IMG/VR virus record: IMGVR_UViG_3300046003_004989
Span: 32,001 to 96,000 of that record
Length of the DNA stretch: 64,000 nt
From: a virus
Direction: 5' to 3' (one strand)
Shown: positions 1 through 55,348 of the stretch, one piece after another
How the letters are laid out: every line of letters starts with the position of its first letter
How positions within the stretch are numbered: position 1 is the first letter of the stretch
The notes under the pieces: generated by a model
Seen by the model: only the letters and a program-made list of their open reading frames with translations
What the model was told of the DNA's origin: nothing
The model's database searches: none
Program-made: the position numbers and the translations under genes

Positions 1-1152
1 TTCGGTTGGTACTGGAACTTTGGAAGAAACGATGTAAATCTTGAATCTTTGTAGAATTGCATCGAATTTATCCTTGTGAATGAAATTCTTATCTGTAAAA
101 TGTTTCCAGATGTTTTCGAATGTCATTATATCTGACGGTTGTACATTAGGACCGAATGCAATTTCAGTAACCGCTTCTGGTGTATTCGTAACAAACTTAT
201 CTTGATCGTGTAGAAGTTTAGCTGTTTTAACTAGACCTTTTGCACCCATAAGAGTTTTTGTTACTTCGAAAATACCTTGACCTAAACGTATAACGAATTG
301 TTTGTATTCTTGAGTCTCACCTTTATCTGTAAGTTTCGTTGCTTCTTTTTTGCATTCAGAAACAACTGACATGAGAAGTACATTTCTGTACATCCCTTTA
401 TATTTTGATTCTGCTGCTCTAAAATCAGGTGAGTGATACATGAAAGTTGACCAATCTAGTGAAGATGTCATCATCAAATCAACTTGAGCAATTCCATTAG
501 ATGCTTTACCTGCAATTGGAACGCCAATAGAAACTTGATTAAATCCAACTGATTTTACTACAGTTATGCCGTTCTTCTTCATTGTTGCTTCAACAAAATC
601 AAGAACATCAGGGATAGAAATTGAATTTACTCCAGCAATACGATCCATTGAACAAGCAATATCCAAGTCACCTGAAAGCTGATCAGCTAGTTTTTTATTG
701 AATGAACCGATCGGTTTTGCAGAATCTTTATCTAAACCGATAAGTGGAAGAATCTTCTTTACTACATAATCGAATGTACCTACAGCTTCTTCTTGTGTCA
801 TAGGACGAGATTCAACTGCATTACCACCCTCATTAACAAATTCTACGGATTCTTCAACGAAATTCTCAACTCGTATAATTGATTTCGGATGATCTTTCAT
901 TGCATCGTGGTCATGAGGAACTAGGAATTCTTCACCGTCTTTCTTTCTAACATTATTCCAAACTCTTTTCAGGATGAATCCTTTCTTAGTATTGCTAATT
1001 ACACGAGAAACTTCTCCTACATTTGGTCCATCGGCAATATAATCACCTGGAGCAACGTCATCCCAATTAACATTTTGAGTTTTGTATTTGTTACTTGTTC
1101 TGTTGAACTTGTTTTCTAGAACAGTATCAACGAATTGTTTGAATTTTAACAT
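1..1152 (-). CDS. Pol-beta-superfamily nucleotidyltransferase with capsid-targeting-like leader (partial; runs off the window start; missing from the ORF track)
   Basis: Manual translation from ATG at 1152 (TAATG overlap): MLKFKQFVDTVLE...EFVNE/GGNAV...IGSFNKK...SGDLDIA...QVDLM, no stop seen before position 1; GS/DxD/D is the Pol-beta NTase signature. Confidence 0.75.
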   Translation of the reverse strand, partial: MLKFKQFVDTVLENKFNRTSNKYKTQNVNWDDVAPGDYIADGPNVGEVSRVISNTKKGFILKRVWNNVRKKDGEEFLVPHDHDAMKDHPKSIIRVENFVEESVEFVNEGGNAVESRPMTQEEAVGTFDYVVKKILPLIGLDKDSAKPIGSFNKKLADQLSGDLDIACSMDRIAGVNSISIPDVLDFVEATMKKNGITVVKSVGFNQVSIGVPIAGKASNGIAQVDLMMTSSLDWSTFMYHSPDFRAAESKYKGMYRNVLLMSVVSECKKEATKLTDKGETQEYKQFVIRLGQGIFEVTKTLMGAKGLVKTAKLLHDQDKFVTNTPEAVTEIAFGPNVQPSDIMTFENIWKHFTDKNFIHKDKFDAILQRFKIYIVSSKVPVPTE

Positions 1153-1769
1153 TATTTAATTTGGCTTATGTTAGTTACTTTTTTACCTTTTTTCTCTTCA
1201 TCATCAGCATCTGCAAAGAAAAGTAAACCTGCTTTAATTAATCTATTGTAGATTTCGTCTTTAACGATTCCAAAATCAATTGTGTCTGATGAATTTTCCC
1301 AAGTATCAGCAACGTATTCTGGATCGATCCAACCGTAACCTGATTTGATATTCTTAACCATGTCTGCAAAATCCATCTCAAATGCTTTTACTGCTCCTTC
1401 ATTCACAGACTCTTGAATATTCAACGGCTTCACTTTTGGATTTCTAGATCCTCTATAAACTGCGTTAAGCAATTTCTTATAGTCTTCAGGAGAATAGAAT
1501 TCTTCTTCCAATCCACAATAAACGAATTTAACATCCGAAGTGTTCATTGATTTTCCTGCATCTTTTCCGTGAGATATGAGGTTCGATGTTCTTTGTGTTA
1601 CAATTGCTGATCTTCCATCTTTCGTAAAGAAGATATCAATACCTTGACCTTCATATGCCTTAACAAAAGTTAAAGGTAAATCATGGTTCAGGTTATATGC
1701 AAGTTCTTCACCCCAAGTTATTCTTGCTTCATTGACAAAATCTTCGAAGCTTGGTATGTGTTTGTTCAT
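1152..1769 (-). CDS. Leader-bearing putative internal head protein, two segments
   Basis: MNKHIPSFEDFVNE leader; internal ESVNE. Confidence 0.7.
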   Translation of the reverse strand: MNKHIPSFEDFVNEARITWGEELAYNLNHDLPLTFVKAYEGQGIDIFFTKDGRSAIVTQRTSNLISHGKDAGKSMNTSDVKFVYCGLEEEFYSPEDYKKLLNAVYRGSRNPKVKPLNIQESVNEGAVKAFEMDFADMVKNIKSGYGWIDPEYVADTWENSSDTIDFGIVKDEIYNRLIKAGLLFFADADDEEKKGKKVTNISQIK

Positions 1770-1771
1770 TT

Positions 1772-2446
1772 TTATGATTGTTTGTTTAGTATTTCGAATG
1801 TTCTAGGTTGCTCGTCTAAGTATGCTTTAGTATCAACCCAAACTTGTCCTAAATGCTTCTCGTTTTCCTTATCAGTGATATCATATATCGTTAGTAAGGT
1901 TGTGTTAACTGATTGACCTTCCTTACCTTGCATTTTAAGTTGATAATCATTCAACCAATATTGAGAATTATGAATTCTGTATGTAGGTCTGTCTGGTCTA
2001 TTACCATGAGGCTTAACTATGAAATATTGAAAGTGTGCGAACATTGTTCCACCTTCAAAATCCCAGATTCTTTCCATTGCTTCATCCGTTGTTGCAGATG
2101 TTCTAGGCATAAGCTTCTTAAACAGCTTAGGATCGATAGAATTCTTTTTGTCCAAGACTACAGGTTTGAAATTATTAAATGTAGTTTCATTTAGAACTGA
2201 TTCATTTAGAATTTCTTGAACTCTAGAAATTATCTCGTCTTTCATTCCTTTCTTTGTAGCTTGGAATAAAGCTGGACTATATTTCTTAATTGCTTTTTCT
2301 ATTTGTTCATCAGTGAATTTTCCGTCTTCATCAGCACTAGTATGATTTGGCATAGAATAAGCTAGATCTTTTGCAGCTTTTTCTATTCCAGGATGAGATA
2401 TTTTAGCCTCATTAACGAATGATTCGAATGTAGGTATATTTTTCAT
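1772..2446 (-). CDS. Leader-bearing putative internal head protein, two segments
   Basis: MKNIPTFESFVNE leader; internal ILNESVLNE. Confidence 0.7.
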   Translation of the reverse strand: MKNIPTFESFVNEAKISHPGIEKAAKDLAYSMPNHTSADEDGKFTDEQIEKAIKKYSPALFQATKKGMKDEIISRVQEILNESVLNETTFNNFKPVVLDKKNSIDPKLFKKLMPRTSATTDEAMERIWDFEGGTMFAHFQYFIVKPHGNRPDRPTYRIHNSQYWLNDYQLKMQGKEGQSVNTTLLTIYDITDKENEKHLGQVWVDTKAYLDEQPRTFEILNKQS

Positions 2447-3252
2447 TATGATAGATTCTTTTTAAGTTCGTTATAGAATGGATGTACAGACTTAGGAGTC
2501 ATTTCGTCAAATGTTTTCTTATCATCTGCAAGGATTGCTTCACGTACTTTAGTACCTGAAGGACCTCCAGTTTGACGATCATCTACATTTTTTAGAATGA
2601 ATGGTTCAGATACAGGTACGTCCGATTTTTCAGAATTGATGTATTTAATTTGTGGTTCGTAAGCTTTCATACGATCAGAACCAGCACCCATTCCGATTGA
2701 TTCATATCCTTTTTCACGTAGGAATTTAACCATTTGTGGAATTACTGTCTTTCTATCGGATGGATATAAGAAGTAGTCTGCCATAAAGCTAAATTCTTTT
2801 GCAACTGCTTTACCAATCTTTTGAAGTAAAGCATCAGGAAAAGGAGACTTATCAGTTTTAGATAGGATTTGAAGTGGAATAACTTTCACACCGAATTGTT
2901 TTGAAGTTCTTTCTAGAGCTGCAATATGTCCGTTATGAAAAGGTTGGAAACGGCCAGGGAAGATACAAACTCTTTCACCGCTAGCAGCTTCAAACATAAA
3001 TAGACCTGCAGTTTCATTAATGGCACCTTTCTGAATAAACATATTCAAATTGATAGTCATTGTGCTACCACCTTTAATAGGTTTTACTGTAAGTATTGCA
3101 CCATTGTTTTTAACGACTTCGTATCTTGATCCTAGATAGAGGACGATTGAACCTACTTCGATAGCTTCAAATTCCTCGACACTCATCTTTTGACCATAAG
3201 CTTTCTTAAAGCCTTCATTAATAAATTGGTCGAATGCAGGTATGTTTTTCAT
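2446..3252 (-). CDS. HIGH-family cytidylyltransferase-like nucleotidyltransferase with leader and small N-terminal beta domain
   Basis: MKNIPAFDQFINE leader; FPGRFQPFHNGH (HxGH), GSDR, SGTKVRE motifs. Confidence 0.8.
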   Translation of the reverse strand: MKNIPAFDQFINEGFKKAYGQKMSVEEFEAIEVGSIVLYLGSRYEVVKNNGAILTVKPIKGGSTMTINLNMFIQKGAINETAGLFMFEAASGERVCIFPGRFQPFHNGHIAALERTSKQFGVKVIPLQILSKTDKSPFPDALLQKIGKAVAKEFSFMADYFLYPSDRKTVIPQMVKFLREKGYESIGMGAGSDRMKAYEPQIKYINSEKSDVPVSEPFILKNVDDRQTGGPSGTKVREAILADDKKTFDEMTPKSVHPFYNELKKNLS

Positions 3253-3268
3253 ATTACTTTTTATAAGA

Positions 3269-3305
3269 CAAATATAATCAATTTCTGCTTAACAGAAAAA
3301 CTTTT
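3269..3305 (-). promoter_or_regulatory. Bacteroidota-type -7 promoter (TTATATTTG) in a 37 bp element duplicated at 8865-8901
   Basis: caaatataatcaatttctgcttaacagaaaaactttt just upstream of the 3252 start; matches TAnnTTTG. Confidence 0.65.
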
Positions 3306-3323
3306 TGTCAATTATTTTTGATT

Positions 3324-3602
3324 TTATTTTACTTCTTCAGTTGAATCTTTGTCCCATTCACCCTTTTTAACAAATCCATGAACTGCAAAGTTAGCACGAG
3401 GTTCACCAGTAGTTTTCACCAATTTATCAATTGCCATATCTTCAGCTTTAGTGTTTTTAACACCTTTAATGTATCGAGCCTTGTATTGCTTTTTGGTTTT
3501 AAAATCTCCAAGAATAAATCCATCATAGAATTTAGTCATATCTCCTTCATTAATTATAGATTCATTAATGAAGTCTTCGAATGTTGGTATGTGTTTATTC
3601 AT
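3324..3602 (-). CDS. Leader-bearing putative internal head protein
   Basis: MNKHIPTFEDFINESIINE. Confidence 0.7.
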   Translation of the reverse strand: MNKHIPTFEDFINESIINEGDMTKFYDGFILGDFKTKKQYKARYIKGVKNTKAEDMAIDKLVKTTGEPRANFAVHGFVKKGEWDKDSTEEVK

Positions 3603-3603
3603 T

Positions 3604-4071
3604 TTAGTATACTCTTTTTAGGTTTATTGATTTTTTATGACGATGTCCCATCATTTCATTTGCTGCAAATGATTCAAATCCAAGTTCTTTAATTGCATCA
3701 AGGATTCCATTTTCTCTTGTTATCCACTCTTCTAATGCATTGAACATATCTTCCAATTCAGCTTTTGATGTTTCTTTTGTAATTCCTCTCATAGGCAAGT
3801 GTTTATCACAAACACCTTTCCATTGTTGAACTAGGCTATCGAAGTATTGTTGATGATATAGTGTATAAGCTGCTTGGAATTCTGGATTCAAAACAATAGA
3901 AACTTTATCTTCTTTGGTTTTAGCTTTTGTAGCAGGGAATCTCTTTCCTACCTCATAGCTTTTACTAACCAACCATTTATGTATGTCGGCTGCTTTAATT
4001 TTTGGATCGTCTAATGTTTTGTATTGAACTGATTCATTTACAAAATCTTCAAATGTTGGTATATTTTTCAT
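3604..4071 (-). CDS. Leader-bearing putative internal head protein
   Basis: MKNIPTFEDFVNE. Confidence 0.7.
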   Translation of the reverse strand: MKNIPTFEDFVNESVQYKTLDDPKIKAADIHKWLVSKSYEVGKRFPATKAKTKEDKVSIVLNPEFQAAYTLYHQQYFDSLVQQWKGVCDKHLPMRGITKETSKAELEDMFNALEEWITRENGILDAIKELGFESFAANEMMGHRHKKSINLKRVY

Positions 4072-4748
4072 TACTTTAATAATTTTCTAATGTTTTCGAT
4101 AACTATTGATCGATGATTGATAACTGCCTGAGCTTCTTTAGGATGTCTTTGCATAAGTTTCATCGTTTCTCTTGCCCAATTTTCTATTTCACGAGTTAGC
4201 TCAAGAGTTTTTGGCCAAGTAGAATCGTTAACGACATCAAAATCTTGATTACCTTCTAGAGATTCAATTCCAGTTTCTACGCTTTTATCGATGTTCGACC
4301 AATATCCACCTCCTTTAGAACTTATGATAGTTCCAACTGGTACTTTTACTTTTCTAGTTCCTCTGATATTTTTAACTTCGGTGTCTTTATTAGCAATATA
4401 AACATTCCAATATTCTCCACCAACTGATAAAAATCTAGATTCATTCATAGCCGATTCAGTAAGATTACCTCCACTGTCAATTCCAGCACTATGCCAATAA
4501 TCGCCTTTACCATTATAAGTTTTAGTAAATGCTACATATTCTTTTGTTTTAGGATTCCAAAAGTGACTTTCACCATTAGAGGCTGCCATCATTTTCAAAA
4601 TACCGCTTTTAGCATCTTTTATGAGTTTTAATTGAACTGCTCTAGTTAGAGGCTCTCTGACAGTTAATTTATCCGTAGATGCTGCAGAGAGAGCTTCATT
4701 GAGAACAGGCTCATTAACAAAGTCTTCAAATTGTGGTATATTTTTCAT
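4071..4748 (-). CDS. Leader-bearing putative internal head protein, two segments
   Basis: MKNIPQFEDFVNEPVLNE; internal LTESAMNE. Confidence 0.7.
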   Translation of the reverse strand: MKNIPQFEDFVNEPVLNEALSAASTDKLTVREPLTRAVQLKLIKDAKSGILKMMAASNGESHFWNPKTKEYVAFTKTYNGKGDYWHSAGIDSGGNLTESAMNESRFLSVGGEYWNVYIANKDTEVKNIRGTRKVKVPVGTIISSKGGGYWSNIDKSVETGIESLEGNQDFDVVNDSTWPKTLELTREIENWARETMKLMQRHPKEAQAVINHRSIVIENIRKLLK

Positions 4749-4754
4749 AATTGA

Positions 4755-5621
4755 TTAGTTGCTCCAACTAGCTGCTACGCTTAATCGAAGATTATATTTT
4801 TTTGCGAATTTTTCTAATTGGTCCATGATTCTTCCTTGGAAAGTTGAGAATTTGCTATACTCTTTAGAAGATGTAGTATTTCCTCCATATTCATTTTCAT
4901 GACGATACTCTCTAGGTTCATCAATTCTCATACGAACTTCTCGATTTTTCAAATCTAAATAAGGAGATCTTACTTCAATTCTTAATTTACTAGCATAAGT
5001 TCTCATTTCATTGTATAGAGGATCTATCTTAGCAGAAAGTTTTCTGAAGTCGTCTTCAATACGCTTTCTATCATTAGCGAGTTTTTGAGCTTGTCTAGGA
5101 TTGAAATATGCACCCATTTTCTTTTCATATTCATCGAAAATATGTACAATATCTTGTAAAACTCCAGTATGATTAGAGATTGATTTGTAACCTCCATAAA
5201 CTACATTTCCAGTTTTAAGAATATCACCATCTGTGTCTCTTATACCGTCGAAATAATGACCGAATGAATATTGAGGCTTACTCGTTGAATTACCTGAAGA
5301 GTATTGGAAAGGTCCGTCTGCATAAGTAGATCTACTCATACCTTTCACAGCAATAACTACTACGAGATTTCCACCATAATTCCATTCAGAACGATAAACA
5401 TATACGTCTAGTGGAACTTTGAGATTTTTGCTTAGATATTTAACAGCTTCAATTCCTTTACCGAAGTTAGTATTAGTTTCGTTACCTTCAGGAGTTCCTT
5501 TAATAGCTTTTAAGAAATTAGCTGGAGACATCGGCTCCATTGAATTGAAAAGAGGTTTTTTGTCTTTAGTATAGAGCATATCTTCATTAATAAAGTCCTC
5601 AAATATTGGAATGTTTATCAT
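4755..5621 (-). CDS. Leader-bearing putative internal head protein
   Basis: MINIPIFEDFINE. Confidence 0.7.
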   Translation of the reverse strand: MINIPIFEDFINEDMLYTKDKKPLFNSMEPMSPANFLKAIKGTPEGNETNTNFGKGIEAVKYLSKNLKVPLDVYVYRSEWNYGGNLVVVIAVKGMSRSTYADGPFQYSSGNSTSKPQYSFGHYFDGIRDTDGDILKTGNVVYGGYKSISNHTGVLQDIVHIFDEYEKKMGAYFNPRQAQKLANDRKRIEDDFRKLSAKIDPLYNEMRTYASKLRIEVRSPYLDLKNREVRMRIDEPREYRHENEYGGNTTSSKEYSKFSTFQGRIMDQLEKFAKKYNLRLSVAASWSN

Positions 5622-5658
5622 TATCTTCTTTTACTTTAGTTATTTATTCGAGATCAAA

Positions 5659-6417
5659 TTAGTCCCAAACTTCGGTGTATGTTCCACCAACAATCATAAC
5701 TCCTTGTTTCCAATCGAAATCAACTCTATCTTTTCTAAAGAAAAAATGATTTTTGATTATTTCTTCGGTTTGTTCTTCAGTCTTACCAAAAGCTACATTA
5801 AGATCTTTAATTACATAAGCTTTATCGTAAGATTTTGTGATATGAGTTGATGCTTGACTTCCATAACCCTGATCTCTTGTATTGATCGTTTTATAGTCGG
5901 CTTTTGATGATTTCCAGAATTGTATGATTCTATTAATCATATCATCATTAAGGGGTTGTTTCTGTGAGAATTTGATCCAATCTTTTACTTGCTTTGCGAT
6001 ATTAGCTTTCTTCGGATTTGATAGATCGAAAGCACGATAATTGTTAATGTAATCGTTTCCTGATACGCCAATTCCACCTCTAGGTTCTCTAGGCTGCTTA
6101 TCAGAAATTACTTCGGTGATCGTGATTGAAGCTTTTATCCACATATTACCAACATTACAGTTTTGTAAAATTTTTGCACGTTTAGCATCTATCCAAGACC
6201 AATCGTTAGTCTCATATTTATTAGATATGTGAATATGTCCGTTACCGTAGTCATAATACTTATCTTCTTTTCCACCTCTTTGATATGCTACATCTTTAAA
6301 GTTAGAAGTTAGTGCAGTTTGTAATTGTCTATCTAGAGCAGCATCTAGAGGATTGATTGTTCCTTCATTTAGAGTTGATTCATTAATGAAGTCTTCGAAT
6401 TGTGGGATATTTTTCAT
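5659..6417 (-). CDS. Leader-bearing putative internal head protein
   Basis: MKNIPQFEDFINESTLNE. Confidence 0.7.
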   Translation of the reverse strand: MKNIPQFEDFINESTLNEGTINPLDAALDRQLQTALTSNFKDVAYQRGGKEDKYYDYGNGHIHISNKYETNDWSWIDAKRAKILQNCNVGNMWIKASITITEVISDKQPREPRGGIGVSGNDYINNYRAFDLSNPKKANIAKQVKDWIKFSQKQPLNDDMINRIIQFWKSSKADYKTINTRDQGYGSQASTHITKSYDKAYVIKDLNVAFGKTEEQTEEIIKNHFFFRKDRVDFDWKQGVMIVGGTYTEVWD

Positions 6418-6818
6418 TATTTGTAATTTTTATTTAAGTACCAATCAATATCAGCCTTATCATAACCTAAAAGCTCACCGATTTTTTTGCTTTCCTGTTT
6501 AGTAGCCTCATATGATAGAAACCCACCATATTTATTAGCAATCTTTGCTAATTCTTTGGCTTTTTTCTCGGCACCTTTATTAAAATAAATATAAGCTTCG
6601 TATGGATTTTCAGGTAATTTGATTGTTCCTAAATTATTAGTCTTAATTAAATTCCAAAATTCATCTTTATTTATATCGACCGAAGTTTTGATAGTAATAA
6701 ATCCCACATCTCGCTTTCCGTCGATAACAGTTTGTATACCACTTTTATCTCGGTGAGCTTCTTCCGCTTTGATACTTTCAGATACGAATTCGTCGAATGT
6801 AGGAATGTGTATGTTCAT
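6417..6818 (-). CDS. Leader-bearing putative internal head protein
   Basis: MNIHIPTFDEFVSE. Confidence 0.7.
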   Translation of the reverse strand: MNIHIPTFDEFVSESIKAEEAHRDKSGIQTVIDGKRDVGFITIKTSVDINKDEFWNLIKTNNLGTIKLPENPYEAYIYFNKGAEKKAKELAKIANKYGGFLSYEATKQESKKIGELLGYDKADIDWYLNKNYK

Positions 6819-6827
6819 TTCACCTTT

Positions 6828-7517
6828 TTATATTTTTCCAGCTTTTACTCTATCTCTAGAAACACTGTTGATGTATTTTAGCTCATCTGCAGTCAATTTA
6901 GGAGAGATTAATTTTTTCCATTGTCCTTCTTGTTTAGCTTTAGGTAACTGCAAAAATTCAATAACGTCTTGATCGTTTTTTAGCTTATCAAGTATTGATT
7001 GAACTGCTTTATCTCTCTTATGTTCTCTCCACCAATCTTTTAAATCTTCAATTGGATGGAAGTCTACTCTATTTGCTAACATTGCAATTTGACCACCTAC
7101 TGCAGCTGCTTGTAGCATTAGTATCACTGTCATTGCGTCTTCATTAATAGGTTCAACTGATTCTCTAACGATATCGAAAAATTTCTTACGATCTGCAGGC
7201 CAAAATTGTTTTTGTCCTGGAATCTCGTCTAAGCATCTAAATGACATAGGCATAGAAGATCCTAAATCATTTTCATGTTCATCTTGATATGAAGTTACCC
7301 ATTTTCTAACTTTGTCATTTGCGTCTTTAACGACTACTCTAACAGCAAAACCTTTTGGGTGAGATTTTAACATTTGATAATCTATTGCATCAATTTTTAA
7401 TTCTCTTTCTAGGTCATCAATGAATTTAGCTGCAACTTTATTAGCTTTATCAGCAGCTGAGGCTTCGTTAAGAATAGATTCATTAACGAATTCTTCGAAT
7501 TGGGGAATATTTTTCAT
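6828..7517 (-). CDS. Leader-bearing putative internal head protein, two segments
   Basis: MKNIPQFEEFVNESILNE; internal VRESVEPINE followed by a hydrophobic helix. Confidence 0.7.
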   Translation of the reverse strand: MKNIPQFEEFVNESILNEASAADKANKVAAKFIDDLERELKIDAIDYQMLKSHPKGFAVRVVVKDANDKVRKWVTSYQDEHENDLGSSMPMSFRCLDEIPGQKQFWPADRKKFFDIVRESVEPINEDAMTVILMLQAAAVGGQIAMLANRVDFHPIEDLKDWWREHKRDKAVQSILDKLKNDQDVIEFLQLPKAKQEGQWKKLISPKLTADELKYINSVSRDRVKAGKI

Positions 7518-7777
7518 TTATGTTTAATGATTTTTATTTGTAAGTCTTTAGTCCCTTTGATTACTCGATGCATAGCACCTTTAGGGATGAATATCTCTTT
7601 ATTGAGCGATATAGGCAATTCATTATCGAATTGGAATTGCCAATCCGTTTTCTTAATTGCTTTTATCGTTCTGTCTTCTTCGTCCCAATGCCATTTTAAC
7701 TCCTCTTCTTCTGTTGATTGAAGGAAAGTTCGAATGTATGTGCATTCGTCTGATTGATATTCACAGTATGCTTTCAT
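7514..7777 (-). CDS. Small cupin-like protein without leader
   Basis: WHWDEEDR...WQFQFDNELP...IFIPKGAMHRVIKG cupin-like pattern. Confidence 0.55.
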   Translation of the reverse strand: MKAYCEYQSDECTYIRTFLQSTEEEELKWHWDEEDRTIKAIKKTDWQFQFDNELPISLNKEIFIPKGAMHRVIKGTKDLQIKIIKHK

Positions 7778-7778
7778 A

Positions 7779-8324
7779 TTACCAAGGTAGATCGGACTGA
7801 AGTCCTAATTGTTTATTGAAGAGTGAAGGTGCATAGCAAGACCAAAACTTTGCAGTTAGCGGATCTTGTGATTTTTTTAAGTCACATTGTTGTCTTGCCC
7901 AGTAAGAAGCTGCTGCTCCTGGATTGTCGTTTTTAATAACCATCTTAGGTTGACCCCAACCGATTTCAACGGCAATAATATTTCCGTCGTCGTCTTTCTT
8001 ACCACTATCATGATAGACTTTAAATTTTCTTTCTCCACCTCTAGTAGGTTCATCGAGTTTTACATCGATCCATTTACCATCAGCGGTTTCAAATTTCGCC
8101 TTTTCTCCGACTTTAAGATTCTTAGACATCCAAGCTTCTTTATCATTGAGAATAACGTTACCCTTATCCCACCATTCTTTAGTTTCTTCGAATAGTTTTT
8201 GATATGCTTCTGATCCAATACGGAATACAGATTCTGTAATGCCTAATCCACGATCTAAGTGATAAAGGAATGCTTCTGATGCATTCTCTCTCAAGTATTG
8301 ATCGAATTCTGGTATATTTTTCAT
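7779..8324 (-). CDS. Leader-bearing conserved phage protein (DUF6321-like C-terminus)
   Basis: MKNIPEFDQYLRE leader; KFKVY...WG.P.M.IK..NP...SYWAR..C...AKFWSC pattern recalled from large phages. Confidence 0.55.
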   Translation of the reverse strand: MKNIPEFDQYLRENASEAFLYHLDRGLGITESVFRIGSEAYQKLFEETKEWWDKGNVILNDKEAWMSKNLKVGEKAKFETADGKWIDVKLDEPTRGGERKFKVYHDSGKKDDDGNIIAVEIGWGQPKMVIKNDNPGAAASYWARQQCDLKKSQDPLTAKFWSCYAPSLFNKQLGLQSDLPW

Positions 8325-8325
8325 T

Positions 8326-8847
8326 TTACTTTTCTGATTTTTCTATATGTTGATCAGCTTTCTTTTTATCGCTTGCTGATAATTCATTGTAAAGTTTTTG
8401 TACAAATACATCATGATTTTTACCGCTATCGTAAGCTCTTGGATCGTCTGCATACATATAGTATTTATCAGACATCTCGTAATGACGTAACCATTTATCG
8501 AAAGGTTTGTACATTTTATCTTCTATTTGCTTACGGATTTGAGAATCTTGCATTTTCTTTTTATTCAAATACCATTCCCAAGAACCTCTAAACTGTCCTG
8601 TCTTAAAAGCGTGAATTATATCACCATCTTTTAATTTGATTTCGAATTTAATGCCTTTCGCATCATCACTAACGTCTTCGATAGATTTGATTTGCTTTTC
8701 AGCTTCTTCCCATTTAACAGGAATCAAATGCTTAACTGAAATAGTAACATCCATCTTAAGGTCTTCGGGAGTTCCCCAACCTTTTTTGAAGTCTGAGTAA
8801 GTTTGATACTCATTTACGAATGATTCGAATGTAGGTATATTTTTCAT
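8326..8847 (-). CDS. Leader-bearing putative internal head protein
   Basis: MKNIPTFESFVNE. Confidence 0.7.
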   Translation of the reverse strand: MKNIPTFESFVNEYQTYSDFKKGWGTPEDLKMDVTISVKHLIPVKWEEAEKQIKSIEDVSDDAKGIKFEIKLKDGDIIHAFKTGQFRGSWEWYLNKKKMQDSQIRKQIEDKMYKPFDKWLRHYEMSDKYYMYADDPRAYDSGKNHDVFVQKLYNELSASDKKKADQHIEKSEK

Positions 8848-8864
8848 ATTGTATGTTTATTTAG

Positions 8865-8901
8865 CAAATATAATCATTTTCTGATTAACAGAAAAACTTT
8901 T
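8865..8901 (-). promoter_or_regulatory. Bacteroidota-type -7 promoter, second copy of the 37 bp element
   Basis: caaatataatcattttctgattaacagaaaaactttt, 2 mismatches to 3269-3305. Confidence 0.65.
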
Positions 8902-9337
8902 AGCTACATGTTTTTCTAATAGTTTCAACTTGTGAACCACTAAAGCCCATTTCTCTTAGAGCTTTTTCGCATTCAAGACCAACGTTGATTCTATCTTTTT
9001 CAACTGGTAAACCTCTAGAATAACCAACTGATTCTGAATATCCGTAATTTGAGATGAAAGCTTTACATCTTCTGATCATTTTAATTGGATCTTTGATAGC
9101 TTTTAATTGTGCTCTTGTCTTACCTGCATAAGGAGCTCTATTACCATAGAAAGAACTACCCATCCATTGCAAATCTTCTGCACGGTCTAGGTCTTTTTTA
9201 TCTGGCATGATTTTTGATATCTCTTCATCTGTCATAGATGATGGAATGACTGCTGATTCGTTGATAGCGTCATCTTGGTCAATAGATTCATTGATAGCGC
9301 TTCTATTCAAGAATTCGTCAAATGTAGTTAATTTCAT
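8900..9337 (-). CDS. Leader-bearing (variant) putative internal head protein
   Basis: MKLTTFDEFLNRSAINESIDQDDAINE. Confidence 0.65.
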   Translation of the reverse strand: MKLTTFDEFLNRSAINESIDQDDAINESAVIPSSMTDEEISKIMPDKKDLDRAEDLQWMGSSFYGNRAPYAGKTRAQLKAIKDPIKMIRRCKAFISNYGYSESVGYSRGLPVEKDRINVGLECEKALREMGFSGSQVETIRKTCS

Positions 9338-9348
9338 TTCTTTATATT

Positions 9349-9645
9349 TTATTTTTCTATAACGTCTATTACGGAATCTTCAGATCCTTCGTAGTCTACA
9401 TCGAAACCTGATGAATCTGCTAGATCAATAAACTGATCAAACTCTCTCCTAGGAAGAGAGTAATATGAATCTCCTTTAATATCTTCAAAATCTAAATTAC
9501 GAGCAAACTTATCATTTAAGATTTGATCTAATTTATCATCATCTACACTAAATAAAACAACATCACTGTGTTTATATGTAGTTTTCATTCTCGCTTCATT
9601 AACAGATTCATTTACGAACTCATCAAAAGTTGGTATGTAATTCAT
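9349..9645 (-). CDS. Leader-bearing small acidic protein
   Basis: MNYIPTFDEFVNESVNE; mature part D/E-rich. Confidence 0.7.
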   Translation of the reverse strand: MNYIPTFDEFVNESVNEARMKTTYKHSDVVLFSVDDDKLDQILNDKFARNLDFEDIKGDSYYSLPRREFDQFIDLADSSGFDVDYEGSEDSVIDVIEK

Positions 9646-9659
9646 TTTTATGTTTGATT

Positions 9660-10109
9660 TTATTTTGCAGAATATGCTATATGTTTAAAGAATCTTTGTT
9701 GTACAAAACTTTGTATGCTAGATATTGCAAACATCGATGTAAAATTACCTTTAAATTTTTGTTTGTTTATATCCAATGAGCATGTAAGATAACCTTTAAC
9801 TACGTTACCTTCAGTTATCATTACCAGTGCCTGATCAGAAGATATCGATATTTGTCCGATATTCCACTTATTTTTATTGTCTTTGATTTTTTTCCAAAGT
9901 TCGTTCATTGGATTTTGGACTTGAACGTCAATTGAACCGGAAACAAAATTATAACTCATATTATTTGTTGCAGATTGAACCTCTTCAGCTGCATCTAAAA
10001 TAACTTCCCAAATCATTTGAGCAGTTTCTTCAGTTAATCTAACGTCTTTTATTGCTTCATTTATCGTAGATTCATTTATGAATTCTTCAAAACTCGGTAT
10101 GTAATTCAT
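9660..10109 (-). CDS. Leader-bearing putative internal head protein (start revised from 10193)
   Basis: Internal ATG gives MNYIPSFEEFINESTINE, matching the leader family. Confidence 0.7.
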   Translation of the reverse strand: MNYIPSFEEFINESTINEAIKDVRLTEETAQMIWEVILDAAEEVQSATNNMSYNFVSGSIDVQVQNPMNELWKKIKDNKNKWNIGQISISSDQALVMITEGNVVKGYLTCSLDINKQKFKGNFTSMFAISSIQSFVQQRFFKHIAYSAK

Positions 10110-10210
10110 TTCTTTCTTTTTATTTTTATATCCTCTAAAAGGATTGTGATTGCAAATATTGCCAATATAGTGAATAATACTATTGGTGGACAAGTTGGGT
10201 CCTGTGACAT
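10106..10210 (-). CDS. 34-aa single-helix membrane peptide (not in the ORF track)
   Basis: MSQDPTCPPIVLFTILAIFAITILLEDIKIKRKK*, fills the gap and overlaps the next start by ATGA. Confidence 0.5.
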   Translation of the reverse strand: MSQDPTCPPIVLFTILAIFAITILLEDIKIKRKK

Positions 10211-10222
10211 TTTTCTATCTAC

Positions 10223-11518
10223 TTATTTTTTATAAGCAAGGATAGATCGGATTTGATGCAATGGTGCAAAAATTCCAGTGTACTTGTAAAGTTTACCTTT
10301 GAATAAGAATGTAATACCTTCAGTCGGTACAATTGATTCTAATCCACCAGCAGCAGAAACACGAGTTAGCTCATGTTCCATCTTTTCTACATCAACTTCA
10401 TCTCCATTTGTACGGATCTTAGAAATTGTAGAATCGATTTCTTTACGCATATCTTCAGCGGCTTTAGTAGGATTTGCAGAAAGGAAAGATGAAATATTTT
10501 TCATCATTTCTGTTCCAATTTCGAGGAAGATAGATTCAAGTGGTGCATATACTGCACGTTTCCATTTCTTAGCCATTTTCTTTTCAAGATCAGTGAACCA
10601 AGTAGCATTATCACCTAAGTCTTTCTTAATCATAGGAACTGAGTAAGACTTATCGATATCTGCTATTCTTCTAGCAAGACCATCAAGAGATTGTTCAGGA
10701 AGTGTGATTTTTGCTGAAGCAGCTTCAGCTTTAATGATATTCTTACCCATACCTAGTGCATAATCACCTACAGTAGAATTCTGAGAACAACCACTTTCTT
10801 TCATGATTGATGCCAATTTAGATTTGTAGTATGATGCTCTAGCTTTTGTATTAGGGAGTGGTTTTGATGCGATGTCTTGAGGACCTCTAACAAAGAATGT
10901 TTCTTGTGCTGCTGCATTTGCATCTGCAACTATTTTACCGAGATCTCTACCAGCTTGTTTATCTTCATCAATTACTTTTCCTGCTTCGTCATATTCGAGT
11001 ACTCCATGGAATACTAACATATTAAGTCCGTAAGGAACAGTGTTTTGAGTTACAGGTGTAATGATTTCAATAGATGCGAATTTCTTACCTTCTGCGAAGT
11101 ATTTTTCTTTGTCTTTAGGTGAAAGTGCTCCGATTGAAGCAGTTAGATCTTTCATTGCTGCATTATAAACAATTTCTATATCACCTCTACCAGCGAAAAG
11201 ATCTGCAACACCTTGAATTGTCATTGCATTTTCACCAGCATTCTTTAAATGAGAACCGTTTCTAGCAGCTATTAAAGCACCATTTTTCCAAGAGATGGAA
11301 AGTTGTTGACCGTCAGTTTTTTCTTGTACGAAGTTTTCAGGACCGAAAGCTCCATTAACTGTAGTCATTAGCATTTCTTCCAAATCCAAAAAGGTCAACC
11401 CAATATCCTCGAAAGGATGTGTGAGATGACCGTAAGCACCACCTTCATTTAAAGGTTCTACTTTAATGGATTCATTAAGATATGCTACAAATTCTGTAAA
11501 TTTGAGTAATTTTCGCAT
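10223..11518 (-). CDS. RNA/DNA-ligase-like (KxDG) nucleotidyltransferase, DUF6267-like, with leader variant
   Basis: MRKLLKFTEFVAYLNE...PLNE/GGAYGHLTHPFED; QEKTDG (motif I), EG-hydrophobic and YKYTG (motif IV/V-like). Confidence 0.6.
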   Translation of the reverse strand: MRKLLKFTEFVAYLNESIKVEPLNEGGAYGHLTHPFEDIGLTFLDLEEMLMTTVNGAFGPENFVQEKTDGQQLSISWKNGALIAARNGSHLKNAGENAMTIQGVADLFAGRGDIEIVYNAAMKDLTASIGALSPKDKEKYFAEGKKFASIEIITPVTQNTVPYGLNMLVFHGVLEYDEAGKVIDEDKQAGRDLGKIVADANAAAQETFFVRGPQDIASKPLPNTKARASYYKSKLASIMKESGCSQNSTVGDYALGMGKNIIKAEAASAKITLPEQSLDGLARRIADIDKSYSVPMIKKDLGDNATWFTDLEKKMAKKWKRAVYAPLESIFLEIGTEMMKNISSFLSANPTKAAEDMRKEIDSTISKIRTNGDEVDVEKMEHELTRVSAAGGLESIVPTEGITFLFKGKLYKYTGIFAPLHQIRSILAYKK

Positions 11519-11543
11519 TGATTGTGAGTCTTTTATTTCATTT

Positions 11544-11551
11544 TATATATC
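11544..11551 (-). promoter_or_regulatory. Putative late promoter GATATATA
   Basis: Recurrent GATA[ATC]ATA motif upstream of virion genes; resembles T4 late TATAAATA. Confidence 0.5.
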
Positions 11552-11574
11552 TTCGAAGAAGACATAAGACTCAC

Positions 11575-11805
11575 CTAGTCCTTTTTAGCTTTCTTTGCAG
11601 CCTTTTCTTCGGCTTTCAAAGCAGCTTTTTCTTCAGCGATACGTTTAGCTTCTTCTTTACCGAAGTCTCTTACGTTAGTTTTCCATTCAGATTTCGGACA
11701 AAATGTCCAACCTTGGTAAGCAACAGCGTGATCTGCTACTTTATCTTCTGATCTACGGTATTCAACCTCATTAGTTTTCGGGTTGATTTTCTTTAATGTC
11801 TTCAT
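11575..11805 (-). CDS. Hypothetical basic protein
   Basis: ORF track; GWTFCPKSEWK core and K/A-rich tail. Confidence 0.55.
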   Translation of the reverse strand: MKTLKKINPKTNEVEYRRSEDKVADHAVAYQGWTFCPKSEWKTNVRDFGKEEAKRIAEEKAALKAEEKAAKKAKKD

Positions 11806-11992
11806 ATTTGATGTATTTTTTGATTTCTATTTTAACTTGATTGTTTGTTTTTCGATCAATCAGAACGAGTAGAATTACATCATCTTTGGAGTCATCATGA
11901 GAATAAACTTCCCACTCAGGGGAAGTTATCTCTTTATCATTGATCCAAGAAGCAACCGTAATGTCTTCTCTTCTATTCAATTTTAGTTGCAT
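11771..11992 (-). CDS. Hypothetical protein
   Basis: ORF coupled to neighbours. Confidence 0.5.
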   Translation of the reverse strand: MQLKLNRREDITVASWINDKEITSPEWEVYSHDDSKDDVILLVLIDRKTNNQVKIEIKKYIKYEDIKENQPEN

Positions 11993-13230
11993 TATTTAGC
12001 GAAAAATTTCTTATTGTTTGTTAATCTCTCGATTTCCCATTCAGGTACGATACCACCCTTTTCTACTAATTTCCAAAGCTTTTTGAAAGTTTCTTCAGAT
12101 TCTTGTCTACGACCTGACCACCAACAAGAAATTGAATGTAGATCGTATATTTTCCAAGCATAGATTGCTCCATCTATGAATAGTGCAGATGTTGGCATTG
12201 GATTCTTACCAGCGAATTTCATAGCATGTGAGCTATAGATATATGCAGTGTCGAACTCCTTAATTGAATGATAGTGTAGAATGATAGGAATTAAGTGTTC
12301 TGTTCTATGAACGTTAGCTTTACCACATTTACGATAATCTTCTAGGATTTCATTAACTGGATAATTAAGAGCACCTTTCAAAGAAGCAACCATTAACAAC
12401 GAATAATAAACTTCTTCCCAGAATCCATCATTAATCATATTAGATCTTTTCTCGTACCACTCTAATGCTTTTGCTTGATTTTCTGGGGTTCCTGCATCTC
12501 GATAAGATTGAGCTAAATAGAATACCCAACGTGGATCTTTCTTCGGATCATTTTCTACATAATCAAGTAGAATCTTAGCATGACCTTCGTATTTTTGTTG
12601 TTGAGTTTCAGAAGTCCAAGAGTTACCATCTGGAGTTACTAAAGTCGTTAGACCTTCGGCTTCACCTACATGAAAACCGTTTGGATCGTCATTTACAAGT
12701 ACTTCGTGTACTGGACCGTACCACCTCCAAGGTGATGTCGTGCTAAAGAATTGCATACGGAAGTAATTCTGACCTCCATAAGAAACTTTAATATTTGCCC
12801 CTGTAAATTGTGTAAGATTTGCTTTAAACATTTGAAGATTGAATCGAGGATCGATAATCAATTGCTCATCGGCATCAATCCAGAAACCGAAGTCTGCTTT
12901 ACCTTCAACAGCTTTTAAAGCTGTATTACGAGCATCTTCGAAGTTTTTCCAAGGATGATCGATTACTTCTCCTGGAATATTTTTCTCTTCAAAGAATTTT
13001 CTGATAATGTCTTGAGTTCCATCAGTAGATCCTGTATCGATAACTACATAATAATCGAGAATAGGATAAACAGAGTTTAACATACGCTCTATTACTTTTG
13101 CTTCGTTCTTAACGATAATGGAAAGTGATACAGTAGCTGGTTTGCCTGTTGGCATTTTTGCTACTTGAGGTCTTTGTACCTGAGGCCTTTGATTTTGCGA
13201 GGGCTTACGCTTTTTGTTATTCTTCGCCAT
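11992..13230 (-). CDS. GT2 glycosyltransferase with C-terminal TPR-like helices (SunS/SgtA-like)
   Basis: IVKNEA, DTGSTDGT, WIDADE, GPVHE, FYLAQSYRD motifs. Confidence 0.85.
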   Translation of the reverse strand: MAKNNKKRKPSQNQRPQVQRPQVAKMPTGKPATVSLSIIVKNEAKVIERMLNSVYPILDYYVVIDTGSTDGTQDIIRKFFEEKNIPGEVIDHPWKNFEDARNTALKAVEGKADFGFWIDADEQLIIDPRFNLQMFKANLTQFTGANIKVSYGGQNYFRMQFFSTTSPWRWYGPVHEVLVNDDPNGFHVGEAEGLTTLVTPDGNSWTSETQQQKYEGHAKILLDYVENDPKKDPRWVFYLAQSYRDAGTPENQAKALEWYEKRSNMINDGFWEEVYYSLLMVASLKGALNYPVNEILEDYRKCGKANVHRTEHLIPIILHYHSIKEFDTAYIYSSHAMKFAGKNPMPTSALFIDGAIYAWKIYDLHSISCWWSGRRQESEETFKKLWKLVEKGGIVPEWEIERLTNNKKFFAK

Positions 13231-53134: not shown

Positions 53135-53476
53135 TTATTTCTTGTAAGTAAAAGCATAGGAACCATCTCTAGTATAGCTCTTATTAATCTTGCTTTTATG
53201 TGAAGCGAAAACTTTAGCTACTAAGTCCTTAGCAAATTTTTCATCTTCTTTTAATTCGGAACCTAGCTTAGAAGTGCTAACTACCAAAGTTTCTTTTTTG
53301 AAGCCAAATCCACCCACAGTATCTAATAAAATACCCTGAGATCCATCTAATTCAAATTTACTATGCTTCTTGCAAGCATCTACTAAGTCTTTCATAAAGT
53401 TCTCTAGGTCTGTGTATGAGCCTTCATTAATAGAAGATTCATTTAGGAACTCTTCAAATGTTGGAATGTGTTTCAT
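53135..53476 (-). CDS. Leader-bearing putative internal head protein outside the array
   Basis: MKHIPTFEEFLNESSINE. Confidence 0.7.
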   Translation of the reverse strand: MKHIPTFEEFLNESSINEGSYTDLENFMKDLVDACKKHSKFELDGSQGILLDTVGGFGFKKETLVVSTSKLGSELKEDEKFAKDLVAKVFASHKSKINKSYTRDGSYAFTYKK

Positions 53477-53491
53477 GATTATATTTTGTGT

Positions 53492-55348
53492 TTATCTTAC
53501 GTATTCTTTTACCATTCTCAAAGGTGGAATAGCATTATCGATCATTAAAGCTTGATCTTGATCTCTTACTACAAATTGATTAAGAGTTATAGGTTGAACC
53601 TCTTCTTCCATTGATTCTTTCCATATTCTAATATTAGTTAGAAGTGTAGTTCCAGCTCTTAACATGAAAGATGTATCGGTTGGAGTTATCGCTTCAGGAG
53701 TCATATTAGAATTTTGAGTAAACAGAAGTCTAAGATTAGTAGTTTTAATTTGTCCATTTGGTGGTAAAGATGAATCGTATCTCATACCCCAAATATGAAC
53801 TGATGTTTGAGAGAATTCATTCATATGATTAACTACAATTCCATACCAATCATTAGGATTCAATTCAGGGAAATTCTGATCAAAAACCATTGTTTGAGTG
53901 TTTCTAACAACAGTTATCGATTTTGTTTTTCCTGTGATAGGATCGTAATCTAAAGTGATTCCAATACCTTTATTTTCTGATGGATTGTAACCATCAATTA
54001 GAATATCTGATCCATTTCCAGTAGGCTTAAACCAAGCAGAAAATGCAGTATTCACTTTGTCATCTCGATTTACCGCTAATTTATACTTAACCGCAATATC
54101 ATTTTTAGTCATACCTACAGGTAAGTTGTAGAAGTACTTACCAACTACCGTAAAGTAATTTGTTAGATCTTTTGTTTCGATAACTAGCTTATCGTGAATA
54201 TGACTTCTTACGTGATCGAATCCACCGATAGAAATTGTACGATACTGTAAGGGTTTCGTAATCTCTTCATATTCTCTTTGGATTTCTCCACCAAGAACTT
54301 CGTCTAATGAAACATGAAGATCGTTAACGTACTGATCGATTTCAGGGATGTTACGCATAACATTTAGTTTATCTTGCCATTTGAATAGATTGACTCTGTA
54401 ATAAGCTTCAGTAGCCATAAAATCACGTCTCAAATATGCCGAGTTAACTTCATATATACGATCAATTAGAGGGAAATACAAATAATCTCTTTGTTCAGGA
54501 AGATCGTCTTGTCCGAATGCTCTTTCGAAATGTTCTTTGACGATATGCACTTCTAGACCATCACCAAAATCCATATCATAAGGTAAGAATGCGATAGCAT
54601 TGTCTGGGAATTGATTGTCAGGAATCATAATCTTGATATCCTTCACTTCCGTTACCTCATATAGTGAAAACTCTTTTAGAACTGGATCAGCAGATTCAGC
54701 TTTAACTTGAGTTTTGAAATATCGAACACAATGACCAAACATTTCCGAAACTGCACATGACATTTCGTGATAGATCTTAATAGCTGGACTCATTACATCA
54801 TAAGGACGGAATAGAGCACCATCACAATTAATTGTAATTCCAGAAGAGAAATTTGTAGTAGGACAAGCATTAGCTTTACAGCCGTCTTGCGTGATTATTT
54901 TCGGAGCAACTCCTGTAGGTGTAACACCTTCTTCGAAATTGATAACAATTCTTTCAATCATTCTTGCTCCAGTTTCTGGACCTTTTCTGACTAATCTAAA
55001 TTGTAAGTCAAATGAATCAGAAATTTTATGCGGATTAGGATCAGTTGGACGAATAATGCCATTCAATGTAGATCGTAAACTTTCTAATTGCTGACCATTC
55101 TCTGCAATTTTAACCCAAGCTGACCAAATAACATGAGGCTTTCCGGTAGCTCTATCTATTGTTGCAATATCATAACTCCATCTAATGTAAATGTCATGAT
55201 AATTCTCCGCAGTCTCTAAAGGAGAGAAGTCAAATTCAATATTTTGTATTGATTTGATATAATAGAAAGCATTCGAAAAGTCCACAAGCAGGGTATCACC
55301 TGCATTGTAAGTTATGTTATTATTGGTTATTTGATAATCGAAACGCAT
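53492..55348 (-). CDS. Neck/head-closure protein (gp14-like core) with extra domains
   Basis: FGHCVRYF, DPVLKE, PEQRDYLYFP..DRIYEV; C-terminal LamG-like AFSAWFKP...WYGIVV. Confidence 0.65.
   Translation of the reverse strand: MRFDYQITNNNITYNAGDTLLVDFSNAFYYIKSIQNIEFDFSPLETAENYHDIYIRWSYDIATIDRATGKPHVIWSAWVKIAENGQQLESLRSTLNGIIRPTDPNPHKISDSFDLQFRLVRKGPETGARMIERIVINFEEGVTPTGVAPKIITQDGCKANACPTTNFSSGITINCDGALFRPYDVMSPAIKIYHEMSCAVSEMFGHCVRYFKTQVKAESADPVLKEFSLYEVTEVKDIKIMIPDNQFPDNAIAFLPYDMDFGDGLEVHIVKEHFERAFGQDDLPEQRDYLYFPLIDRIYEVNSAYLRRDFMATEAYYRVNLFKWQDKLNVMRNIPEIDQYVNDLHVSLDEVLGGEIQREYEEITKPLQYRTISIGGFDHVRSHIHDKLVIETKDLTNYFTVVGKYFYNLPVGMTKNDIAVKYKLAVNRDDKVNTAFSAWFKPTGNGSDILIDGYNPSENKGIGITLDYDPITGKTKSITVVRNTQTMVFDQNFPELNPNDWYGIVVNHMNEFSQTSVHIWGMRYDSSLPPNGQIKTTNLRLLFTQNSNMTPEAITPTDTSFMLRAGTTLLTNIRIWKESMEEEVQPITLNQFVVRDQDQALMIDNAIPPLRMVKEYVR

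Follow-up and report, generated by a model that had tools for sequence, protein, structure and literature searches.

A short leader resembling the T4 capsid targeting sequence on about 32 unrelated proteins of an uncultured phage

We analysed a window of 64,000 nucleotides, bases 32001-96000 of the single 144,480-bp contig of IMG/VR record IMGVR_UViG_3300046003_004989, which begins with a dense array of genes whose products share a short N-terminal peptide, referred to here as the leader. The source phage is an uncultured, 144-kb, distant relative of T4 with a likely host among the Bacteroidota; the sequence has 34% G+C, nearly every gene lies on the minus strand, and a megablast search of window positions 1-12000 against deposited phage records returned no match and no close relative. 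Positions 1-11518 hold 18 tightly packed minus-strand open reading frames (ORFs), 17 of which start with the leader: 14 in its canonical form, M-x(2,3)-IPxFxx[FY]xxE (gene starts at 1769, 2446, 3252, 3602, 4071, 4748, 5621, 6417, 6818, 7517, 8324, 8847, 9645 and 10109), and three as variants (starts at 1152, 9337 and 11518). A preliminary description of this DNA had placed 17 leader genes among 19 consecutive genes; the ORF listing bears out the 17 and their division into 14 canonical and three variant forms, but gives 18 ORFs rather than 19. As that description also proposed, the array continues beyond the window, by one further leader gene, with which the leader is present on 18 of 19 ORFs over 12.6 kb. 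The genes of the array are listed below in window coordinates unless a locus is given, with lengths in amino acids (aa) and with a bar marking the predicted cut after Glu.

1..1152, minus strand: leader gene, 394 aa in full (last 10 codons off the window); in order, variant leader MLKFKQFVDTVLE, a ~95-aa unmatched module, the linker FVNE|GGNAVE (829-837) and a PolX-like nucleotidyltransferase body
1152..1769, minus strand: leader gene, 205 aa, MNKHIPSFEDFVNE; internal site SVNE|GAVKAF (1398-1406) before an 81-aa module
1772..2446, minus strand: leader gene, 224 aa, MKNIPTFESFVNE; two internal LNE sites (2186-2209); body matching no known family
2446..3252, minus strand: leader gene, 268 aa; leader, ~65-aa module, AINE|TAG (3013-3021), cytidylyltransferase-like domain
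3324..3602, minus strand: leader gene, 92 aa, MNKHIPTFEDFINE; second site IINE|G
3604..4071, minus strand: leader gene, 155 aa, MKNIPTFEDFVNE; top score of all leaders with the hidden Markov model (HMM) described below
4071..4748, minus strand: leader gene, 225 aa; second site VLNE|A, internal AMNE|S
4755..5621, minus strand: leader gene, 288 aa, MINIPIFEDFINE; body matching no known family
5659..6417, minus strand: leader gene, 252 aa; second site TLNE|G
6417..6818, minus strand: leader gene, 133 aa, MNIHIPTFDEFVSE (ORF and HMM)
6828..7517, minus strand: leader gene, 229 aa; internal PINE|D site
7514..7777, minus strand: 87 aa, the sole leaderless ORF of the array (ORF listing)
7779..8324, minus strand: leader gene, 181 aa, MKNIPEFDQYLRE; conserved in 8 related arrays
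8326..8847, minus strand: leader gene, 173 aa, MKNIPTFESFVNE (ORF and HMM)
8900..9337, minus strand: leader gene, 145 aa, variant MKLTTFDEFLN; AINE|S twice after the leader
9349..9645, minus strand: leader gene, 98 aa, MNYIPTFDEFVNE (ORF and HMM)
9660..10109, minus strand: leader gene, 149 aa from ATG 10109, MNYIPSFEEFINE; late-like box just upstream
10223..11518, minus strand: first array gene, 431 aa; in order, variant leader MRKLLKFTEFVAYLNE, a short linker, PLNE|GGAYGH (11444-11452) and a tentatively assigned ligase-family nucleotidyltransferase body with a KxDG motif
L002:10867-11940, minus strand: off-window leader gene, MLKFKEFQNWLNE, one gene beyond the window edge

An HMM was built from the 14 canonical leaders and searched against the 2354 start-anchored ORFs of the genome, a check proposed in the preliminary description. 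It recovered 15 N-termini at E values of 1e-9 to 7e-13, followed by a tail of recognisable variants that brings the total to about 28-32; with these weaker variants judged by eye, the leader is carried by about 32 genes genome-wide. Outside the array, one leader gene lies within the window, nine crowd the head module just past it (locus L003), next to the portal, the protease and the capsid protein, and further ones are found around 132-133 kb and 143-144 kb of the genome. The isolated example within the window is as follows.

53135..53476, minus strand: leader gene, 113 aa, MKHIPTFEEFLNE; second site SINE|G

The core of the motif, [FYW]xx[FYW][VILM]xE, has a density of 3.42 per 1000 aa within the first 40 residues of proteins and of 0.27 elsewhere, a 12.7-fold difference, and the recurrence of the leader is not due to chance. 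A broad regular expression gives false positives, matching a non-head 76-aa ORF of T4 (end of the uvsW region), and single weak matches should therefore be left out of any count. A leader-like stretch, MRNIPEIDQYVND, was also seen in frame about 330 residues into a 618-aa ORF (window 53492-55348, minus strand; stretch at about 54358; HMM E 0.0018), where it could represent an internal start, a fused gene or chance.

From the source genome and its IMG/VR relatives we gathered 390 distinct leaders, with the clade consensus M-K-[HN]-[IL]-[KP]-[TS]-F-E-[EQ]-F-[LIV]-N-E followed by a small residue. Counted from Met1, the first aromatic has the same position in 250 of the 390, which gives a leader of 13 residues, and the four best-conserved positions are an aromatic (F/Y, 90%), a second aromatic three positions on (F/Y/W, 98%), an aliphatic residue (L/I/V, 95%) and Glu (94%). 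In the 14 canonical leaders of the array the Ile, the Pro, both Phe and the Glu are invariant while their codons vary freely: identical leader residues share a codon in 0.565 of pairs, compared with 0.526 expected from genome codon usage. The 40 nt upstream of the leader ATGs are on average 37% identical. Since the codons are randomised and the upstream DNA is unrelated, recent duplication, gene conversion and an RNA or DNA element are ruled out as the cause of leader conservation; selection acts on the leader peptide and not on the DNA.

The leader closely resembles the capsid targeting sequence (CTS) of T4. Both ipII and ipIII of T4 (NC_000866) begin MKTYQEFIAE, as the preliminary description had stated, and the roles it gave to the CTS and to IPI* agree with the literature (PMC9026906, PMC3012670). 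The first 10 residues of the CTS suffice for packaging; residues 4 and 7 mainly govern targeting and residues 8 and 10 processing, such that an Asp at position 10 stops cutting while leaving targeting unaffected (PMC9026906). When aligned on the final Glu, the leader reads MK-(NIP)-TFEDFVNE and its four best-conserved positions are the four mapped CTS positions (Tyr4, Phe7, Ile8 and Glu10). The start of T4 gp68, MLLIPETHELVLE, fits the same frame. The leader differs from phiKZ-type cut sites, which have a small residue (S/A/G) at P3, in that its P3 is L, I or V in 95% of cases.

A gp21-type protease, which the preliminary description had suggested looking for, is encoded in the head module. 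The first ~140 residues of a 634-aa protein match Peptidase_S77 (PF03420, E 4.5e-12), the PHROG 'head maturation protease' and the crystal structure of T4 gp21 (5JBL), with a weaker match to Pfam S80 (E 8.9e-7); the catalytic His85 and Ser140 of T4 gp21 align with a His and a Ser of the phage protein, so both catalytic residues are kept. The other head genes are likewise of T4 type: the capsid protein matches Pfam Gp23 (E 7e-37), the portal matches Portal_T4 (gp20-type, E 3e-73) and a gene for a DNA end protector is present. Three genes of this module are used below.

L003:7909-9813 (genome 103909-105813), minus strand: prohead protease fused to a scaffold-like tail
L003:6132-7742, minus strand: capsid protein
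L003:1441-2934 (genome 97441-98934), minus strand: leader-tagged RimK-type ATP-grasp protein (Pfam RimK, E 2.7e-34)

The C-terminal ~450 aa of the protease are scaffold-like, with repeated segments (…EYTKVVA.KAD.GIE…) and 11 [LIVMF]NE sites. This tail contains 34 [LIV]xE motifs versus 13.5 expected by shuffling, and a 554-aa protein of the head module contains 27 versus 12.7; no homologue of gp22 was found, and these two [LIV]xE-rich proteins are the scaffold-like candidates. The same protease-scaffold gene fusion is annotated in Tenacibaculum phage PTm1. Judged by the capsid protein, the closest relatives with names are uncultured huge phages, Lak phages and Tenacibaculum phages (31-56% identity), the last being the nearest cultured relatives (32%), and hundreds of IMG/VR contigs encode capsid proteins at 55-81% identity; a phmmer search of the capsid protein against the PDB gave no match. 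Three sites in the N-terminal piece of the capsid protein, M(x)LINE, IIE and L-x-E, stay invariant even in relatives with identity as low as 55%. The last of the three aligns near the maturation site of T4 gp23, and distant relatives read LNE|S there, as the leader does. The M(x)LINE start is present in all relatives examined and recalls the MAKINE of T4 gp24, which suggests that a very short N-terminal peptide of the capsid protein may be removed as well.

The boundary between leader and body is sharpest in the ligase-like protein of the first array gene. In an alignment from related arrays, identity across the mature part averages 74%. This part begins abruptly at an invariant E|GGAYGH, whereas the 14-45 residues ahead of it differ in number and sequence, the leader residues excepted. 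A survey of 115 cluster representatives from public metagenomes gave N-terminal pieces of 14-81 residues, with Glu before GGAYGH in 112, L/I/V/M at P3 in 114 and mostly Asn at P2. In an AF2 model of the protein, leader residues 7-17 form a helix and the linker (residues 18-31) is disordered.

Cut-site-like motifs also occur well inside the leader genes, where they separate one module from the next, and tandem second copies are frequent directly behind the leader. In the PolX-like family, F-[VIL]-x-E invariably stands before the conserved start [GS]GN[AS][IV]. The motif is provided by the leader itself in short forms and by an internal leader-like copy, following 80-190 residues of inserted modules, in long forms; the gene in the window is a long form (ESVEFVNE|GGNAVE). 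In the PolX-like gene of one relative (L109:11895-13247, plus strand), the serial junctions FIAE, EEFVNE and ESFISE separate two inserted modules from the enzyme, and this gene is the clearest polyprotein-like example. In relatives, the 81-aa module at the C-terminus of the 205-aa protein either follows the leader directly or closes other proteins, with [LV]-[ND]-E in front of it in every case, and the cytidylyltransferase-like domain, which follows AINE in the source genome, follows the leader directly in relatives. Since the same modules stand behind either the leader or an internal junction, modules move between genes along with the cut-site-like junction, and by their sequences some leader genes look like small polyproteins.

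The bodies carried behind the leader are mutually dissimilar, as had been noted by eye: an all-versus-all BLASTP of the array bodies gave no match at E <= 0.01. Those leader-tagged bodies that can be classified fall in different folds (ligase-like, PolX-like, cytidylyltransferase-like and RimK ATP-grasp). Searches of the bodies against Pfam, PHROGs and NCBIfam supplied names for the cytidylyltransferase-like and RimK-like proteins only, and ESM Atlas gave no functional lead for the 181-aa and 288-aa proteins. The domain of the 268-aa protein is cytidylyltransferase-like, of the HxGH type and NMNAT-like. The PolX-like body has a palm-thumb fold (Foldseek probability 1.00, E 6e-5, ~236 aligned columns). 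For the ligase-like model, a VIA structure search placed a Trl1-type tRNA ligase best with middling statistics (Z 7.2, rmsd 3.7, 115 aligned), and Foldseek returned RNA-ligase rows below threshold only; because it is based on fold and the KxDG motif, the assignment of the first array protein as a ligase-family nucleotidyltransferase is tentative. The RimK-type protein has a weak Zn_protease-like C-terminal stretch and is kept with its leader in relatives. The few nameable bodies look like enzymes of nucleic-acid repair and nucleotide metabolism rather than classical small inhibitors.

We fetched 26 related arrays from relatives for comparison. Behind the ligase-like gene, leader genes number 1-12 per 10 kb and the content differs greatly from array to array, which repeats at larger scale the polymorphic internal-protein loci of T-even phages, in which only the CTS is conserved (PMC3012670). 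For eight of the 17 bodies in the window the 26 arrays contain no homologue, while the ligase-like protein recurs in 26, the cytidylyltransferase-like protein in 23 and the PolX-like protein in 19; the ligase-like protein forms 854 protein clusters in public metagenomes. Two smaller points concern individual genes. The leaderless 87-aa ORF directly follows the gene of the 181-aa protein, and the pair recurs in related arrays (e.g. L088:13077-13894); that the 87-aa protein might be a non-packaged partner, such as an inhibitor or immunity protein, is pure conjecture. The gene at 9660..10109 almost certainly starts at ATG 10109, where the leader begins, and an extension from TTG 10193 is probably left untranslated.

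Three classes of upstream motif were seen in the genome. A GATA[TA]ATA box lies 24-33 nt before the ATGs of the protease, portal, sheath and tube genes and of two leader genes of the head module, with 20 copies on the coding strand versus 1 on the other; its likeness to T4 TATAAATA leads us to take it for the late class. A box of this type, likewise spaced, precedes the first array gene, and from its sequence the expression of the array looks late. Two boxes of a second, host-type class lie inside the array.

11542..11551, minus strand: late-type promoter box GATATATAAA, 33 nt before the first array gene
3269..3276, minus strand: host-type (Bacteroidota-like TAnnTTTG) promoter-like box, 24 nt before ATG 3252, with a short hairpin before the box
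8865..8872, minus strand: second TAnnTTTG promoter-like box, 25 nt before ATG 8847, in a hairpin-plus-box cassette like that at 3269-3276

TAnnTTTG boxes are also seen before presumptive early genes, and with two of them inside the array part of it may also be made early, which does not contradict packaging. A third motif, CATATAA[CT], was observed before several replication and other genes (e.g. window 14451, 35980 and 62574; genome 46451, 67980 and 94574) and may represent a middle class, distinct from both the TAnnTTTG cassettes and the late-type GATATATAA boxes.

Taken together, these observations make it likely that the leader is a T4-type CTS at the head of a greatly expanded targeting and processing system. 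The short helix would dock each protein onto the scaffolding core during prohead assembly through its two aromatics three positions apart, and the gp21/S77-type protease would then cut after the Glu of [LIV]-x-E, freeing the mature cargo inside the shell. With extra cut sites behind the leader and leader-like linkers between modules, some genes would be processed as small polyproteins. The cargo would remain with the DNA and probably enter the host together with it. The preliminary description had proposed a modular system of address tag and cargo that delivers many candidate anti-defence or host-takeover proteins at infection. The tag-and-cargo part of this proposal is well supported, by the gp21/S77 protease, the positional match to the T4 CTS, the [LIV]-x-E junctions, the late-type promoters and the crowding of leader genes in the head module. 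Docking, cutting, retention in virions and injection are steps that we infer; injection and anti-defence roles would follow by analogy, and an injected arsenal is a plausible reading of the cargo.

Several points weigh on the other side. The support in this uncultured clade comes from sequence and comparative data, and the leader pattern has no match in the cultured Tenacibaculum phage PTm1. Matches to the PHROG 'internal head protein' are limited to two marginal ones (E 0.0034, PHROG 7673 with the N-terminus of the 229-aa protein, and E 0.065) and are therefore not used as strong evidence. Cargo bodies are at most weakly depleted of [LIV]xE (88 observed and 88 expected by shuffling, compared with 725 versus 606, a 1.2-fold enrichment, in other proteins), and we do not claim this as evidence. 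It is conceivable that the conserved L/I-x-E preceding mature domains is part of the folded domain itself, and the two host-type boxes suggest that some of the array may be expressed early.

A wider reading, which we regard as possible and no better than tentative, takes the tag as a general construction kit that combines polyprotein linkers, a delivered core of conserved enzymes and a variable anti-defence remainder. Leader-like [FV]-x-E linkers would then let fused genes be cut inside the shell into several independent cargo modules; the ligase-family, PolX-like and NMNAT-like enzymes would repair or protect the incoming nucleic acid before phage gene expression, and the variable remaining cargo would form a fast-turnover arsenal against host defences. 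If so, about 15% of the genes would encode virion cargo.

Other explanations start from the same leader. It might target the prohead on proteins that are mostly parts of the scaffold or core, to be degraded and expelled like T4 gp22, gp67 and gp68. The nine leader genes beside the portal, protease and capsid protein fit this idea, as do the start of T4 gp68 and the many small leader proteins that belong to no known family, and some of the leader proteins of the head module may indeed be prohead-core parts that are degraded at maturation and not injected. As an account of most of the set it is unlikely: the conserved array members are enzymes with intact motifs (KxDG, HxGH, PolX-like palm and ATP-grasp), the cargo bodies show no excess of [LIV]xE whereas the scaffold-like proteins hold 2.1-2.5 times the expected number, and relatives differ greatly in what their arrays contain, as they do not in structural parts.

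We consider it improbable that the leader has nothing to do with the head and is instead an N-terminal module of another kind, such as a helix for docking to a chaperone or regulator, a tag for degradation or a sequence that suits translation starts. A simple amphipathic helix, as modelled for the leader, and two host-type promoter-like boxes inside the array would suit such a role, and packaging is after all deduced from sequence; but the agreement of the four conserved positions with the mapped CTS positions would then be a coincidence, as would the ending of the leader in a gp21-type cut motif, the internal copies that bound mobile modules and the clustering of leader genes in the head module behind late-type promoters. 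That the shared start is a DNA cassette of promoter, ribosome site and first codons, comparable to the mobile promoter stem-loop cassettes of T4-type phages and spread by recombination or recent duplication, would suit the tight tandem packing of the genes and the shuffling of modules between leaders in relatives, but this explanation is rejected as very improbable, being largely refuted by the saturated synonymous sites (0.565 versus 0.526) and unrelated upstream DNA (37% identity), and the leader is moreover kept across relatives with capsid proteins only 55-80% identical.

Returning to the T4-type CTS as the preferred reading, a common tag for head loading and cutting on about 32 unrelated proteins means that the genome sequence probably reveals which proteins are packaged. 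Should the tag function as its T4 counterpart does, sequence alone would suffice to list the proteins that an entire abundant, uncultured clade packages and probably injects, and the leader set would form a catalogue of candidate first-minute effectors, mostly of unknown fold. The arrays also display how such cargo evolves, by gene gain and loss behind a fixed tag and by module fusion through reusable cut sites, and, in addition to the single example of T4, they point to a compact tag-and-release system found in nature by which large capsids could be loaded with foreign proteins.

The principle of a head-targeting tag has been known from T4 since the 1990s. What is notable against that background is the scale (about 32 genes), the fixed 13-residue tag, the reuse of linkers between modules and the conserved enzyme cargo. 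Like the source phage, T4 uses an N-terminal tag of 10-19 residues, with aromatics at i and i+3 followed by aliphatic-x-Glu, on IPI, IPII and IPIII (and Alt), together with a gp21/S77-type protease, a gp23-type capsid protein and a gp20-type portal, and its cargo bodies are mutually unrelated and its cargo loci vary between related phages (PMC3012670, PMC9026906). T4 differs in tagging only a handful of genes. The source phage for its part has a three-residue N-terminal extension (NIP or similar) and prefers Asn at P2; second cut sites often follow in tandem, and leader-like linkers occur within genes. Its cargo includes enzymes (ligase-like, PolX-like, cytidylyltransferase-like and RimK-like), its protease is fused to a long scaffold-like tail and its host is likely a member of the Bacteroidota. 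The phiKZ-like giants (substrates of phiKZ gp175 and SPN3US gp245) similarly cut many head proteins after Glu with a distant relative of gp21, with several cuts per propeptide and with proteins ejected along with the DNA (PMC10052503, PMC9026906), but their motif is S/A/G-x-E, their propeptides lack a common leader and are mostly long (111-254 residues), and nine protease substrates are known in SPN3US compared with about 32 leader genes here.

More distant parallels are found in encapsulins and in phage P1. In encapsulins a short terminal peptide directs unrelated enzymes into an HK97-fold shell and makes the cargo predictable from sequence; the peptide is usually C-terminal and binds the shell protein, and the system has no protease step, DNA or delivery to another cell. 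The Dar system of P1 (DarA, DarB, Ulx, Hdf and Ddr) reportedly consists of head-loaded proteins that are injected to protect the incoming DNA, and is said to load them through an ordered protein hierarchy rather than by a common cleavable leader of the type described here.

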